From: an uncultured Acidobacteriota bacterium
GTDB taxonomy: Bacteria > Acidobacteriota > Thermoanaerobaculia > Multivoradales > SZUA-115
DNA length: 64,000 nucleotides
Assembly (NCBI GenBank): GCA_963805975.1
Contig: CAWDVR010000006.1
Coordinates: 256,001 to 320,000, forward strand
Direction of reading: 5' to 3'
Part shown: positions 7,310 through 12,764 of the stretch, in pieces
How the letters are laid out: each line of letters opens with the position of its first letter
Numbering within the stretch: the stretch's first letter is position 1
Notes under the pieces: generated by a model
Told to the model about the DNA's origin: nothing
The model's input: only the letters and a program-made list of their open reading frames with translations
Databases searched by the model: none
Translations under genes and position numbers: made by a program

Positions 7310-8200
7310 ATGTCGCTCGAGCGCCCCACCGTCCGCGAGGCCCTGCTTGCCCGCGATGGCGGAGGGGAGGCTCGCCGCGAAGCCATCGAGGAGAGCTTCT
7401 TCCGCCGCCTGCGCCTGCCGGACGGGGTGACGAAGCGCACCCGCCGCGGCCGGCTCACGGACCTCGACACACTTCTGGCGGAGCACCTGCCGCGTGGCCG
7501 GCGGCTGGAGCTGATGGACGTCGCGGTCTCCTCGGGCGTCACCACGCTCGACTGGGCCGCGAGCCTGCGGCGCGCCGGGTTCGACTTTCGCCTCGTCGCC
7601 GGGGACGCCGCGCCCTCGGCCTGGCTGCTCTCCTTCGGGAGGCGCATCGAGGTGCTGGTGGACGGCGCCGGCCGGCCGCTCCAGTACGACCTCTTCGGCC
7701 GCGCCGTGCCGAGCACGGCACCCGGGCCGCTCGCCGTGCTGCCCTGGCTGGGCCGCCTCCTCACCCGGCTCGCCCTGGCCTGGGACGGCGACCTCCGGCG
7801 ATCGCTGGCCGAGGGCCGCGAGGTGCGAGGCAGGAGGCCGGTGCGCAGCCAGCGCGTCGCCCTGGTGGTGCCGGAGCTGCTGGCGGATCCGGCGATCGAG
7901 CTGGTGAAGGACGATCTCCTCGCCGTGACCGAAGACCCCTTCACCGGCCGCTTCGTGGCCCTGCGCGCCGCCAATCTGCTCAACCGCGGCTACTTCACGG
8001 AGGAGCAGCTCGGCCGCATGCTGTCGCGCCTCAGCGGACGGCTCGAGCCCGGGGGGCTCCTCGCCGTCTGCCGTACCGAGGAGGACGATACGAACCACGC
8101 CACGGTCTTCCGGCGGGGAGACGGCGGCCTGGAGCCGGTCGCGAGGCTGGGGCGCGGCTCCGAGGTGGAAGACCTGGCCGGGAGCGTCAGGCTCTCCTAG
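7310..8200 (+). CDS. Class I SAM-dependent methyltransferase-like protein (CheR-like fold)
   Basis: LMDVAVSSG (motif I-like), FVALRAANLLNRGYF and RLEPGGLLAV. Confidence 0.65.
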   Translation: MSLERPTVREALLARDGGGEARREAIEESFFRRLRLPDGVTKRTRRGRLTDLDTLLAEHLPRGRRLELMDVAVSSGVTTLDWAASLRRAGFDFRLVAGDAAPSAWLLSFGRRIEVLVDGAGRPLQYDLFGRAVPSTAPGPLAVLPWLGRLLTRLALAWDGDLRRSLAEGREVRGRRPVRSQRVALVVPELLADPAIELVKDDLLAVTEDPFTGRFVALRAANLLNRGYFTEEQLGRMLSRLSGRLEPGGLLAVCRTEEDDTNHATVFRRGDGGLEPVARLGRGSEVEDLAGSVRLS

Positions 8201-10436
8201 CGTCCGCCTCCGACGGCGCCCGAACCGACTCTGCCGCCGGCTCGGGAGCCGGCGCGAACACCACCGTCGCCGTCGCTCCGCAGGCGACCAGGCTCGCGAC
8301 GATCAGAAAGCCCAGCCGGGCGATCGTCGGGTTGGCCGACAGCATGAGCACCGAGAGGCCCGCTCCCACCACCAGGACGTTGGCGGCGACACGGCGCAGG
8401 ACCGCGGCGTGCTCGGCGGCCGAGCCCTCGTGGAAGGCGAGGTGGATGCCGTAGTCCAGCCCCACGCCGACGCCCAGGGCCAGAAACGAGGAGGTGGCGA
8501 CGCCGAGGGGGAGCCCCAGCCAGCCGGCGAGGCCAAGGACCATGAGCAGCGCCCAGACGTTGGCGGCGATGGCGCGGAAAGACCGGCCCCAGCGACCGGA
8601 GGCGAAGCCCAGGAGCAGGAGCGAGACGCCCAAGGCGAGCAGGACGGAGGTGGCCTGGTTGCCGACGATCGACGCGATCAGCGTCCGCCCGCGCTCGGCA
8701 CTGCCGCCCACGGCGACCGCCACCTCGCCCGCGGGAAAGGCCCTGCCCACGGCCGCGTCCACCTCCCGGCGGACCCGGGTCGCGGTGCGGTAGTCGTCGC
8801 TCGCAATTCCCAGGATCAGGCGGGTGGAGGACTGGGGCCGGTCGAGGAACATCCGAGCGAAGATCGCCTCGTTGAAGAAGGCATAGGTCTCGAAGAGGCG
8901 CTCGGCTTCGGCCCGGCTGCCAGGCAGCGGCGGCCGGTCCCGCGCCGGGTCTGCCACCTCCCAGGCCCGGTCGCGGAGCAGGTCGGCGAGGGAGAGCGAG
9001 GCCGTGACCTCCGGCAGAGCGGCCAGATCCTGTTGCAGCCGCTCGATCGTCCGGAGCTCCGGCGGCTCGGTCCAGGCCCGTCCGTCCGAGCGGGTCAGCA
9101 TCAGGTCGAGCTGATAGATGCCCACCGACTCCTTCTCGAACCAGCGCACGTCCTCGACGATGGGATGGTCGGAGCGGAAGTTCTGGGTCCAGCCGTCGTC
9201 GATGCGCAGGCGCAGGAGGCCGGGGAGCAGCAACAGCGAGAGCGCGAGCATCAGCGCCGGAAGCCAGCGCCGGCCGCCGGCCGGATGGATCGCGGCCAGG
9301 GTGCCCCATTTTCTTCCTTCGCGAATGGGAACCAGGGCGAGGACGGCCGGCACGAGGGTGACGCTGATCAGCCAGGAGACCGCGAGCCCGATGCCCGCGA
9401 TCAGGCCGAACACCTGGAGCGCCGGTGCCTCGGTGGCCCAGAAGGAGGCAAAGCCGATCACCGTCGTGAGGGTGATGGCGGTACACGGGAAGAAGAGCCG
9501 TTTCAGGGTCTCCCAGGCATGGGCCACGGCCGGTTCGTCCGGCCTCTCCCGGCGCAGTGCCAGGAAGGTGCCGAAGAAGTGGATCTCGTCCGCAATGCCG
9601 AGCACGGTGATGAGCACCGGGATCATCGCCGTCATCAGCGAGAGCGGGTGCCCGAGCCGGGTCTGGATCGCGAGGGTCAGCACCACCGCCACCCCGGACT
9701 GGAAGAGGGCCAGACCCACCAGCACCCAGGAGCGGAAGAGACCCCAGAAGAGCAGCGCGATGACCAGGAAGCTCCAGGGCAGCAGGCGCTTCAGATCCTC
9801 GAACACCGTCTGGCCGAGGCCGTTCAAGACCACGTAGCGGCCGAGCAGGCGGACGCGGTACTCGCCGGGACCGCGGGCGTCGAGCTTGGTGAAGGCTTCC
9901 CGGAGCCGCTTCTCGATGCTCGCCACCCCGGTGGCCGAGAGCGCCGGCGTCTCCAGGAAGACCGCGCGCCGCGATCGCCCGGCGGCGAGCTGGCCGGTCA
10001 CCGCGGTGGTGGCCAGGGCGCGCTCGATCCATTCCGTGCTCGGGGGATGGAGAAGGTACGGCTCGCCGGCCGCGTCCCGCGCCGCGAAGCGGGGGCGGAA
10101 GAGGCGATCGAGGACGAGCTGCTCGACGTTCCGGCTGACCGAGAGCTGCTGCAGGAAGAAGTGGAGGTCTTGGCGAAAGACGGGATCCGAGATCGTCCGG
10201 CCGACGGCCTCGAAGGCGATGATCAGCCGCTCGTCTGAGCCGAAGCGCTCGCGGATCGCCTGGTCCGCGGCGAGGACCGGGCTGCCGGCAGGCAGCAGGT
10301 CGAGGTCGTTGACCCGGATCCGGACCTCGGCGAGCGGCCTCGCCAGGAGGGCCACGGCCACCAGCATCGCAACGAGGGCGACGGCGAGAAGGATGCGGCC
10401 CCAGGCCGGGGAGATGCGGGGCCGGATGAGCTTCAG
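8187..10436 (-). CDS. MMPL/RND family transporter
   Basis: Two-repeat topology (TM, periplasmic loop, TM bundle) with GIADEIHF and GVGLDYGIH motifs; inferred CTG start at 10436 overlaps the upstream TGA; first ATG is at 10367. Confidence 0.9.
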   Translation of the reverse strand: MKLIRPRISPAWGRILLAVALVAMLVAVALLARPLAEVRIRVNDLDLLPAGSPVLAADQAIRERFGSDERLIIAFEAVGRTISDPVFRQDLHFFLQQLSVSRNVEQLVLDRLFRPRFAARDAAGEPYLLHPPSTEWIERALATTAVTGQLAAGRSRRAVFLETPALSATGVASIEKRLREAFTKLDARGPGEYRVRLLGRYVVLNGLGQTVFEDLKRLLPWSFLVIALLFWGLFRSWVLVGLALFQSGVAVVLTLAIQTRLGHPLSLMTAMIPVLITVLGIADEIHFFGTFLALRRERPDEPAVAHAWETLKRLFFPCTAITLTTVIGFASFWATEAPALQVFGLIAGIGLAVSWLISVTLVPAVLALVPIREGRKWGTLAAIHPAGGRRWLPALMLALSLLLLPGLLRLRIDDGWTQNFRSDHPIVEDVRWFEKESVGIYQLDLMLTRSDGRAWTEPPELRTIERLQQDLAALPEVTASLSLADLLRDRAWEVADPARDRPPLPGSRAEAERLFETYAFFNEAIFARMFLDRPQSSTRLILGIASDDYRTATRVRREVDAAVGRAFPAGEVAVAVGGSAERGRTLIASIVGNQATSVLLALGVSLLLLGFASGRWGRSFRAIAANVWALLMVLGLAGWLGLPLGVATSSFLALGVGVGLDYGIHLAFHEGSAAEHAAVLRRVAANVLVVGAGLSVLMLSANPTIARLGFLIVASLVACGATATVVFAPAPEPAAESVRAPSEADARRA

Positions 10437-10888
10437 GGCGGGCAGAAGACCTCCACCTCCGCGCCCGTGCCCCCGGTCTGGAGCTCGCCGGCATCGAGGC
10501 GGTCGCCATCGCCGTCGTCATCGTCCAGGAAGGCCGCGTCCGGCAGCACGAGCACCTGCCAGAGAGCCCTCCGGGAGGGGGTCAGCGGGCGGCGGACCCA
10601 GTGCTGAGAGGAAGCGTGGAGGTAGGCCTGGCAGTCCCTGCTCTCCGCATCGCCCACGGCGAAGCCGGGCCAGGTCAGGGATCGCTCGTCGAGGAAGACA
10701 CGGCGCGCGGCGAGCTCGGGTGGGGGAGAAAGCGGCGGGCGCCAGGCGGGCACGGCGAGCGGAGTCAACTGCTCGCCGGCCCGGGTGGCGATCTCGAAAG
10801 CGGGCTGGAGGGCCGGCCGGGTGCGCAGCGCCTGCCAGAAGATCAGGCCGAGGGCGACCAGGAAGAGCGCCGCCATCCGTCGGTCCAT
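10433..10888 (-). CDS. Hypothetical membrane-anchored protein (151 aa) with an acidic DDDDGDGD loop
   Basis: N-terminal hydrophobic helix MDRRMAALFLVALGLIFW; GAGAGGG upstream; coupled to the MMPL gene. Confidence 0.7.
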   Translation of the reverse strand: MDRRMAALFLVALGLIFWQALRTRPALQPAFEIATRAGEQLTPLAVPAWRPPLSPPPELAARRVFLDERSLTWPGFAVGDAESRDCQAYLHASSQHWVRRPLTPSRRALWQVLVLPDAAFLDDDDGDGDRLDAGELQTGGTGAEVEVFCPP

Positions 10889-10908
10889 CGAGCTCGCCCT
10901 CTCGAGGC

Positions 10909-11547
10909 CTACGGCATCTCGAACGAGCCGGTCAGGATGCGACCAACGACCTCTCCCGGACGGTCGGCGTCCTCGAGGTTGACCGAGCTCACCATCTTGT
11001 AGAGGGTGCCCGACGGCGGCGGAAAGTCCCGTACGTCGTCGCTGCGCAGGGTGGCCGGAGTGACCGTGCGGAAAGTCTGGCCCGGCAGGGCCTCGAAGGT
11101 CACGAACACGTTGAAGCTCATCACCTGCACTGCCGGGAAGCTGGTTCCGGGAGTCTGCTCCCAGATCGCGCTCTTGCCGGGCCGGGACTCGTCGAGCCAG
11201 TAGTTGACCGCGCCGAGGCCCTCGACCACGGAGGCTACGCTGACGTTGGTGATGTTGAGCGGCACGGTCATCTGGCCGGCGGAGTTCCGGTAGGGCGTGC
11301 CAGTCTTGCCTTCGATCGACGGGCCACCGATACCCACGGACTCGAACGGCGCGCCGAGCTGGGCGAGCTGGAGGGTGTGCTTCGGGTTGCCGTTCACCTT
11401 CTTGACGGGCGGGCACTTGAACGTGCCCTGCGGCAGGGCGGCGATCGCGGCGTCGGCCGAAGGAGCGGAGGCCATCCAGGCCCCTGCGCCCAGGGCGAGG
11501 GCGAAAGCCAAAGCCAGGCTGAGTGTGGATCTTCCAGACATTTGCAT
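10909..11547 (-). CDS. Secreted beta-rich hypothetical protein, paralog A
   Basis: Sec signal peptide ending ADA-A; AAAGGGGA Shine-Dalgarno; roughly half identical by eye to 11941-12591. Confidence 0.88.
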   Translation of the reverse strand: MQMSGRSTLSLALAFALALGAGAWMASAPSADAAIAALPQGTFKCPPVKKVNGNPKHTLQLAQLGAPFESVGIGGPSIEGKTGTPYRNSAGQMTVPLNITNVSVASVVEGLGAVNYWLDESRPGKSAIWEQTPGTSFPAVQVMSFNVFVTFEALPGQTFRTVTPATLRSDDVRDFPPPSGTLYKMVSSVNLEDADRPGEVVGRILTGSFEMP

Positions 11548-11588
11548 TGCGTTCCCCTTTCCAACCAGGGAGGTTGGGAGTTGTCCCG
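11548..11588 (-). promoter_or_regulatory. Conserved 5'-UTR hairpin and SD element, copy A
   Basis: CGGGACAACTC-CCAACC-TCCCT-GGTTGG-AAAGGGGAACGCA-ATG; near-identical copy at 12592-12632. Confidence 0.7.
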
Positions 11589-11689
11589 GCCAACGCCTCC
11601 GGCACGAGGAAAACCTCGGTGTTGGCGATGAGCTGGGCGATTTGCGAATAGAAATTTTCAAATGTCCTGTCTAATTGCTGGGCGGGCGT

Positions 11690-11718
11690 AGACTAGTGCA
11701 CCTGAAAAAGTTTGTCAA
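11690..11718 (-). promoter_or_regulatory. Sigma70-type promoter for paralog A
   Basis: TTGACA-N17-TAGTCT on the minus strand within an AT-rich patch. Confidence 0.8.
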
Positions 11719-11890
11719 ATAGTTTTTTGCTCGTGTTGACCCAACAGGCGCTGTCTAGACATTCTTCGTGAAGTCGAAAGAGGAGCGAGAGGAAAAGGCG
11801 AGGCGCGGTGGACGGGGGCACCTGCTCTAGGTGCAGGTGGCGAACTGGGAGGTGGAGGGCCGATCGGCTGTCCAGCGCCTGCCATCAGGC

Positions 11891-11930
11891 GGAGGGCGGC
11901 GAAAAGAGCGCCGCCAGTCGCCGGCCCTCC
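11891..11930 (-). terminator. GC-rich inverted repeat downstream of paralog B (terminator or stabiliser)
   Basis: GGAGGGCGGCGA...TCGCCGGCCCTCC imperfect stem 10 nt after the stop codon; no clear U-tract. Confidence 0.4.
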
Positions 11931-11940
11931 TTCGAAGCGG

Positions 11941-12591
11941 CTACGGCATCACGAACTGGCCTGCCTCGATCCTCCCCACCACCTTGCCGGGGTTCTGGGT
12001 ATCTTCGAGATCTACCGGGCTTTGTAGGTTGTAGACAGTCCCTGGCGGCGGCGGGAAAGCACGCACGTCGTTGCTGCGGACGCTGGCCGCATGACGTGAC
12101 CGGAAGATCCTGCCGGGCATGGACTCGACGGAGACGAAGAAATTGAAGCGCATGTCTTGGATGGCTGGGAACTCGGTGCCGGGAACCTGCTCCCAGATCG
12201 CGCCTTGCACCGGACGAGAGTCGTCGAGCCAGTAGTTGACGGCCCCGAGGCCCTCAGCGGCCGAAGGAACGTTGAAGCCGGTAACCTGGAGGGGGACAGT
12301 CTTCTGACCGGCGCTGTTCACAAACGCAGGTCCGGCCGTACCCTCGAGGCCGGGGCCACCGATAGACCTGGTGGCGAAGGAGCTACCGAGGTCGTTGAAG
12401 GAGACCTGGTGGAAGACGGACCCCGAGGTCTTCTTGTACGGAGGGGGCGGGCATCGGAAGCTTCCAGGGACCGGCAAATTGGCAGCGCTCACGGCGGCGT
12501 CAGCCGTGGGAGCTGTCATCCATATGCCGAGGCTCGTGGCGAGGGCCAGTGCCAAGGCCAAGCTGAGCGAAGCCCTTCCAGACAGTCGCAT
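11941..12591 (-). CDS. Secreted beta-rich hypothetical protein, paralog B
   Basis: Signal peptide ending ADA-A; shares EGLGAVNYWLD, AIWEQxPGTxFPA and FPPP motifs with paralog A. Confidence 0.88.
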   Translation of the reverse strand: MRLSGRASLSLALALALATSLGIWMTAPTADAAVSAANLPVPGSFRCPPPPYKKTSGSVFHQVSFNDLGSSFATRSIGGPGLEGTAGPAFVNSAGQKTVPLQVTGFNVPSAAEGLGAVNYWLDDSRPVQGAIWEQVPGTEFPAIQDMRFNFFVSVESMPGRIFRSRHAASVRSNDVRAFPPPPGTVYNLQSPVDLEDTQNPGKVVGRIEAGQFVMP

Positions 12592-12632
12592 GGCGTTCCC
12601 CTTTCCAACCGCGGAGGTTGGGAGTTGTCCCG
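12592..12632 (-). promoter_or_regulatory. Conserved 5'-UTR hairpin and SD element, copy B
   Basis: CGGGACAACTC-CCAACC-TCCGC-GGTTGG-AAAGGGGAACGCC-ATG. Confidence 0.7.
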
Positions 12633-12735
12633 TTTCCACAACCGTCTCGAGATACAGCCCCGACAGACAGGTATGGAACGAGTCGATTTGCACAATGATA
12701 TTTCCTGATACATATTTCTTTTCTCTAGCATTGAT

Positions 12736-12764
12736 AGACTAATGCCAGCTTGAAAGTGTGTCAA
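12736..12764 (-). promoter_or_regulatory. Sigma70-type promoter for paralog B
   Basis: TTGACA-N17-TAGTCT on the minus strand; same hexamers as 11690-11718. Confidence 0.8.

Follow-up and report, generated by a model that had tools for sequence, protein, structure and literature searches.

An MMPL-family transporter cassette with putative DynF-like barrel proteins in Thermoanaerobaculia

MMPL transporters are widespread, and partner proteins that accept their cargo are known for few systems. In the BstABC system of Methylococcus capsulatus, the MmpL-family protein BstA is described together with soluble sterol binders, and hand-off of lipid between them has been proposed (PMC11713862). In mycobacteria, MmpS5 is described as anchored by a single helix on MmpL5 (PMC12122801), and Rv0455c as a separate soluble periplasmic factor needed alongside MmpS4-MmpL4 and MmpS5-MmpL5 (PMC9042941). 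A different kind of lipid-binding protein is DynF (6UBL), described as a dimeric eight-stranded barrel with strands 4-7 split and with palmitate in a closed hydrophobic cavity; its role in enediyne biosynthesis is left open in that account (PMC8725005). Here we describe a cassette of four genes, A to D, in a 64,000-nucleotide stretch of DNA from an uncultured Acidobacteriota bacterium (assembly GCA_963805975.1, contig CAWDVR010000006.1, positions 256,001 to 320,000; hereafter the window). Genes A and B encode putative exported barrel proteins, C a small anchored protein and D an MMPL transporter. Our preferred reading, to which we give a probability of about 55%, is that, with C as a helper, D fills the barrels with a lipid-like cargo on the outer side of the inner membrane. 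A literature search found no description of the cassette, subscription papers on DynF orthologs being outside its reach.

Conservation and setting of the cassette

A genome-wide scan with the barrel sequence found two other Thermoanaerobaculia loci, both with the gene order barrel(s)-C-D. With C as the only query, strong matches came from 9 of the 201 genomes of the order and from three metagenome contigs; these counts exclude a weak match in genome G655 (E 7.7e-4 over 26 positions). There are 13 loci besides the window, with L030 and L057, which are the same DNA, counted once. Twelve of these loci have DNA downstream of C, and in all 12 the next gene is an MMPL gene of the same clade as D; the gene immediately before C encodes a barrel in 10 of the 13. 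The three exceptions are L083 and L087, which carry an ABC-permease-like insertion, and L055, which is truncated. In L083 the inserted gene (9481-11856) separates the barrel gene from C and runs the opposite way; the insertion in L087 (10006-end, with L058:3-1694), from the same genus as the L083 genome, is of the same kind, and the contig ends within it. Strong barrel matches (E<1e-30) were found in 10 of the 201 genomes, among them all nine with C, and 13 of the 18 such matches lie inside a cassette, one of them inferred across a contig break. No LolA-like gene was found in the 13 cassette loci. Judged from gene order and similarity, the cassette is a patchily distributed unit of barrel, C and D.

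A first-pass annotation of this DNA, made from its letters alone, had proposed an undescribed conserved module tied to an MMPL gene, and this is borne out in other genomes, where close homologs are linked to MMPL genes of D's clade. It had also presented two barrel paralogs as a feature of the module. This does not hold generally: most loci have one barrel gene per cassette, and in a close relative (run X1) the cassette is at the same site on a contig that spans from the B promoter region to DegT without gene A. The cassette was not found in a genome of the same genus (G631, 93% complete). A word-based protein search with B returned just two relatives, and a metagenome scan with B returned none. 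B gave two marginal matches only in 300 genomes of the phylum and C was not found in 400, results that do not indicate absence, as both samples are poor in the relevant families.

The four genes interrupt a run of plus-strand glycosyltransferase, sulfotransferase, DegT and epimerase genes, as the first-pass annotation had noted. Two genomes have these flanks without the cassette: in G599 DegT comes immediately after a homolog of the left-flank gene, and on contig C8 of G637 it follows that gene after ~0.3 kb. Since the flanks adjoin in these two genomes, the interruption of the glycan locus is real. A role for the cassette in exporting or decorating what this sulfated-glycan locus makes is scarcely credible and largely refuted: the cassette does lie inside the locus here and in the close relative, yet the flanking genes adjoin without it in G599 and G637, and in the other loci inspected gene calls revealed no glycan locus next to it. 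On this comparison of gene orders, the glycan locus is merely the insertion site of the cassette. The left-flank gene itself (window:7310-8200) encodes 296 amino acids with only a faint hint of S-adenosylmethionine binding (CheR) and shares 14 bases with the end of D, the two genes running toward each other; its homologs stand before DegT in both G599 and G637. In another locus (L029:6450-6690) the cassette comes directly after two apparent tRNA genes (by eye), a typical insertion site.

The neighbors of the cassette vary from locus to locus, with no common biosynthetic genes evident from gene calls. No polyketide synthase (PKS) or DUF1702 gene was evident beside it, and the genome's own PKS/DUF1702 cluster is on contig C3. 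This setting would also fit uptake or detoxification, in which the barrels would trap a hydrophobic compound from outside, either a fatty acid or something toxic caught by their Cys (a polyene or an electrophile), and D with C would take it in or clear it from the membrane. The lack of biosynthetic genes, the varied neighbors and the patchy spread (9/201 genomes) suit a stand-alone accessory cassette of this kind, as does the surface anchoring of some barrel homologs. Against it, the characterized MMPL-family members described in PMC11713862 and PMC12122801 are exporters or inner-to-outer-membrane transporters, and we regard uptake or detoxification as unlikely.

Coordinates of the genes and putative control elements are given in Table 1. 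The same promoter-like site and a common 40-nucleotide leader precede both A and B, so the unit of promoter, leader and gene was copied whole. Sites of the form TTGACA-N16-18-TANNNT number just 66 across the 5.36 Mb genome. The -10 box of both promoter-like sites has 3/6 matches, and for this reason a stock promoter scan missed them. The first-pass description of A and B as strongly promoted is thus borne out as to the two duplicated sites, the word "strongly" being drawn from the consensus only. A role for the leader as a structured RNA was rejected: the two copies fold no better than shuffled sequences (z 0.11 and -0.49). The leader, which was not evident by eye upstream of homologs, is taken as a by-product of the duplication. 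The G+C content at third codon positions of A-D is 0.77-0.92, as expected of real genes at 70% G+C.

Table 1. Genes and putative control elements of the cassette (window coordinates)
Feature	Coordinates	Strand	Description
Gene A	12591-11941	minus	216 aa; likely signal peptide; DynF-like barrel by homology to B; single Cys47
Gene B	11547-10909	minus	212 aa; likely signal peptide; predicted eight-stranded DynF-like barrel; single Cys45
Gene C	10888-10433	minus	151 aa; N-terminal membrane helix and small alpha/beta domain
Gene D	10436-8187	minus	749 codons; MMPL/HAE3-like RND transporter; likely CTG start
Promoter-like site upstream of A	12764-12736	minus	TTGACA-17-TAGTCT; sigma-70-like consensus; ~145 nt upstream of A
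Promoter-like site upstream of B	11718-11690	minus	TTGACA-17-TAGTCT consensus
Leader of A	12593-12632	minus	40 nt with ribosome-binding site; 95% identical to B leader
Leader of B	11549-11588	minus	40 nt; duplicate of A leader

The barrel proteins and their conserved cysteine

Proteins A and B share 54% identity (E 1e-70), and all the common blocks listed in the first-pass annotation are present in both: IGGP, NSAGQxTVPL, EGLGAVNYWLD, AIWEQxPGTxFPA, FPPPxGTxY and a terminal F-x-M-P, with one Cys each within F[KR]CPP. Their likely signal peptides, called by eye and hydropathy, are of ordinary type, and neither protein has an anchoring tail. Scans of Pfam and NCBIfam assigned no family to A, B or C. 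Membership of DUF6073 or DUF6004, which had been suggested for checking, was not found with the Pfam models: against DUF6073 (PF19550, cut-off 25 bits) A and B have no match at E<=1 and none of 94 homologs matches at E<=0.01, and the cut-off of DUF6004 (PF19467, ~400 residues) is not reached by A, B or their homologs. An Atlas search did point to DUF6073/DUF6004 clusters (score 0.92), which we treat as a lead only.

An exhaustive protein search found 105 relatives of the barrel. From these an alignment of 94 rows was built, made up of 88 database proteins (87 of the 105 matches and one from the word-based search), A, B and four proteins from the loci. Compared with the sequences of the PDB, the barrel profile matched DynF at E 6.4e-4 over positions 51-205, the sole match below E 0.5. 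A DUF6073 gene of the same genome matches DynF at E 1.2e-15, and DUF6073 is therefore the DynF family; the A/B profile in turn aligned to a small DUF6073 profile with 92.9% probability over 64 columns (hhalign). The AlphaFold2 model of mature B (predicted local distance difference test score, pLDDT, 95.4) contains only beta structure, in eight strands, and strands 4-7 are each split in two. With Foldseek this model matched 6ubl_A at E 3.1e-7 and probability 1.00, with a template modeling (TM) score of 0.71 and a root mean square deviation of 6.7 over 188 columns at 20% identity, and DynF was its single match below E 0.001. A and B thus belong to a new, likely exported, Cys-bearing branch of the DynF superfamily, distant from DUF6073. 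In most predicted strands one face is hydrophobic, as read from alternating columns of the 94-row alignment, and the interior of the barrel is predicted to be hydrophobic.

The first-pass annotation had offered two readings of A and B. One, that they are new periplasmic lipid carriers that do not look LolA-like, fits the predicted DynF barrel, and neither protein matches the LolA-like profile PF17131; the fold, with its distant DynF and DUF6073 relatives, is not wholly new. The other, that they are surface or fiber subunits exported or modified by the MMPL protein, now seems very improbable. The consensus promoters would suit abundant subunits, and some distant homologs have IPTL-CTERM-like tails or are fused with domains of surface type, as in two genes on contig C2. 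Against this, the predicted structure is a closed barrel of the lipid-binding type, no pilin, Ig, fiber or LolA fold was among the significant Foldseek matches of B, and the ordinary signal peptides of A and B come with no anchoring tail. Moreover, we know of no RND pump that exports folded proteins.

Related barrels occur in several surface-type contexts. On contig C2 (L001:7783-11639, G000:C2) a third close barrel paralog, of 227 amino acids with three Cys and no MMPL gene nearby, is flanked by the two fusion genes, each encoding a distant barrel, a lamin-tail-like domain (by eye) and a C-terminal membrane anchor; in both, the mature part begins GGGGCSGNGC. Four longer proteins (P0029, P0079, P0088 and P0105; 800-2250 amino acids) contain several Cys-rich DynF-like barrel repeats and a dockerin-like tail (by eye), so that the DynF-like fold also serves as a repeated surface module.

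The single Cys of A and B lies ~12-14 residues past the likely AxA cleavage site with no lipobox; a lipobox-like pattern occurs in 2 of the 94 barrel rows, neither of them A or B. The Cys is kept in 84 of the 86 rows that have a residue in that column and in 19/19 barrels from cassette genomes. One strong barrel has no Cys in that region, a single case from genome G720 (910 contigs), in which C was not found. The residue sits in strand 1, in register with the hydrophobic face, from which we infer that it faces the cavity. Gln107 and Tyr149, also conserved, are in inward register, and most cassette barrels have a His at least 6 residues after the Cys, which is often replaced where a second Cys appears.

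Such conservation would be expected if the barrels were periplasmic enzymes whose catalytic Cys modified, by acyl transfer or isomerization, a lipid delivered by D. The nearby His and the inward Gln107 and Tyr149 would fit this as well, and the DynF ortholog Sgd15 is described as essential for sungeidine biosynthesis (PMC8725005). We nevertheless think an enzymatic role unlikely. The Cys position is Met in DUF6073 and apparently Leu in DynF (alignment read by eye), the orientation of the Cys comes from sequence register, and separate consensus promoters with tandem gene copies suit a stoichiometric binder.

Protein C and transporter D

C has at least 201 homologs, and the four listed matches that carry a taxon name are from Thermoanaerobaculia. 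The protein has a membrane helix at residues 3-22, invariant Cys86 and Cys149, and an acidic motif, DDDDGDGDxLDxGEL, which we take to resemble calcium-binding Dx[DN]xDG loops. The acidic motif (0.90) and the helix (0.86) are its most conserved parts, most of the soluble part being 50-58% conserved per column. Its model (pLDDT 84) has a small alpha/beta domain after the helix. Comparisons with Pfam, PDB sequences, Foldseek and the Atlas gave no match, and by these criteria C is a new family. With MmpS it shares one N-terminal membrane helix and co-encoding with an MMPL gene, and no sequence or fold homology to MmpS was found in Pfam, PDB sequences or Foldseek. The divergence of C tracks that of D (Spearman 0.57, p 0.004, 10 loci), though common ancestry is enough to produce a correlation of this kind.

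The start codon of D is probably a CTG that overlaps the stop codon of C. The first ATG (10367) would truncate the first membrane helix, the CTGA overlap is unchanged in contigs from three other runs, and D homologs have ATGA or TTGA overlaps at the C-D junction. D belongs to the MMPL/RND proteins (PF03176, 40 bits, cut-off 20.5). Its best NCBIfam match is HAE3 (TIGR00921) at 130.6 bits, below the cut-off of 351.9, and HpnN (TIGR03480) gives 63.4 bits, not reaching 751.85; among solved structures HpnN is the best relative (E 1.7e-9). The hydropathy profile has 10 peaks, against the twelve membrane helices of MMPL/RND proteins with their two periplasmic domains, in the expected 1+n+1+n layout and with two long soluble stretches. 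In a tree the 11 full-length cassette copies form one clade (support 100/100) far from seven other MMPL proteins, and D is 23-26% identical to the other aligned MMPL proteins; the partial MMPL of L082 was excluded, and a long branch was flagged among the outgroup rows. By these sequence measures D represents a distinct MMPL clade. The motifs G[IV]AD[ED]xH and GLDY, with Asp in helices 4 and 10, are kept in all 11 full-length members, at what we take to be the proton relay positions of RND transporters.

Proposed function and known systems

In the reading we prefer, D would move its cargo out of the inner membrane, driven by the proton gradient; the conserved Asp of helices 4 and 10 suggests the proton drive. 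C would be an anchored helper, likely bound to D through packing of its conserved helix, by analogy with MmpS5 on MmpL5. The barrels would be secreted by Sec rather than by D and made in excess from their own promoters. The cargo may be an acyl-chain lipid or a polyene; its biosynthetic genes presumably lie elsewhere, as none accompany the cassette. In the periplasm the barrel cavity would take up this greasy cargo, with the barrels acting either as shuttles or as loaded sinks, and the conserved Cys would face the cavity and help to hold or react with it. A more specific form of this idea, in which the barrels are periplasmic covalent acyl carriers and the D-C pump loads an acyl chain or polyene onto the inward Cys as a thioester or adduct, is doubtful. 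If true, it would be a new way to move lipids across the periplasm and would give a carrier function to the DynF fold, which is essential yet unexplained in anthraquinone-fused enediyne pathways.

The association of barrels with MMPL genes extends beyond the cassette. The genome holds 11 barrel-superfamily genes and 7 MMPL genes, and 4 of the 7 have a barrel gene within ~8 kb: the one in the window, one in an MMPL-LolA-like-dihaem-DUF6073 run, one in a DUF6004-MauG-MMPL-LolA-like run, and one with a barrel between it and a giant nonribosomal peptide synthetase (NRPS) gene. Of 17 loci in other genomes with more distant barrel matches, 6 have a gene of another MMPL clade within ~8 kb of the barrel, and two of the six stand beside DUF1702 enediyne-type cassettes; two DUF6073 matches on short G348 contigs were left out of this neighbor analysis. 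In several of the other MMPL operons the gene adjoining the pump is LolA-like, a position that C holds in the cassette.

Several of these loci merit description in their own right. The first run (L005:735-9798; G000:C1 ~990.7-999.8 kb) has co-oriented genes for an MMPL protein, a LolA-like protein, two di-haem (DHOR-like) proteins and two near-identical DUF6073 proteins with signal peptides, followed by a nucleotidyltransferase-GT2 fusion. L065 has the same layout, and the run in G495 ends with a ketoacyl synthase (KAS) III gene instead. The second run (L019:14112-15380 and L002:1416-14826; G000:C1 ~819-834 kb) begins with DUF6004, an NHL-repeat/M16-peptidase fusion and an M16 subunit, and continues with genes for a MauG-type di-haem peroxidase, an MMPL protein and a LolA-like protein. 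The NRPS-linked distant barrel (L004:15571-16218 and L021:5364 onward) is just upstream of the giant NRPS gene and 5 kb from MMPL, and L068 and L100 contain orthologous pairs of barrel and MMPL. Enediyne-type cassettes with DUF1702, an UnbU-like membrane protein and an iterative PKS occur at L022:3000-11981 (G000:C3 ~326-336 kb) and also at L031, L067 and L068. Of the order's 201 genomes, 59 have DUF1702, and in three genomes it has distant DynF-like genes as neighbors. A link between our cassette and the enediyne-type cassette was considered and rejected, as DUF1702 is not enriched in C-bearing genomes (8/9, vs 37/49 genomes of the same three families). In the window itself, ~11 kb from the cassette, a CrtC-type double-lipocalin gene (window:23408-24562) encodes another likely binder of hydrophobic ligands.

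A number of observations weigh against the loading of barrels by D and C. The palmitate in DynF is thought to have been co-purified from E. coli, and a heptaene-binding test described in the same source was negative (PMC8725005). Barrel divergence does not track that of D (Spearman 0.13, permutation p 0.16), a weak result for a tight docking partner, and the cassette encodes no outer-membrane component. Five strong barrel copies stand alone with no MMPL or C gene nearby (L001, L059, L060, L095 and L096), and 11 of the 17 loci with distant barrel homologs have no MMPL gene nearby. Since most distant loci are without MMPL, and 8 of 92 barrel homologs end in a surface-anchoring tail, the barrel fold also functions where there is no pump. 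Other operons contain both a DUF6073 barrel and a LolA-like carrier, and the barrel is therefore not simply a LolA substitute. It should also be noted that the genomes with cassette loci are relatives within one order; the loci are not independent of one another, and none of these counts amounts to a statistical test.

The cassette adds two new candidate families of MMPL partners, the exported DynF-like barrel and the anchored protein C with no known fold, and is compact enough for reconstruction in a laboratory strain. DynF is now tied to DUF6073/DUF6004 and to a recurring MMPL link, and the idea that DynF-fold proteins are carriers of hydrophobic intermediates becomes testable on a soluble protein.

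Compared with described systems, the cassette resembles MMPL-plus-partner lipid systems and is a member of none of those tested. Like MmpS5-MmpL5 and MmpS4-MmpL4, it co-encodes a small single-helix protein with an MmpL gene, but C matches neither MmpS nor any PDB chain, and D, at ~750 amino acids, is too short for a long coiled-coil stalk. BstABC likewise comprises three genes, for an MmpL-family inner-membrane protein and two extracytoplasmic partners; there, however, BstB is a bilobed substrate-binding protein, BstC is an outer-membrane lipoprotein and sterol genes are adjacent, whereas the partners here are a DynF-like barrel and the inner-membrane-anchored C, with no biosynthetic neighbors evident. 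The operons of HAE3-type MMPL with LolA-like (PF17131) genes, and HpnN, have a transporter of the same family as D, and those of this genome also hold DUF6073 or DUF6004 genes; the cassette loci differ in having no LolA-like gene, and D is in its own clade, far below the HpnN cut-off. DynF is part of an enediyne biosynthetic cluster, and its full-length chain was crystallized (418/422 residues built), whereas A and B have likely signal peptides and belong to a stand-alone transport cassette, and the conserved strand-1 Cys and the sub-cut-off Pfam score set them apart from DynF and DUF6073. With DynF the model of B nonetheless shares an eight-stranded up-down barrel in which strands 4-7 are split.

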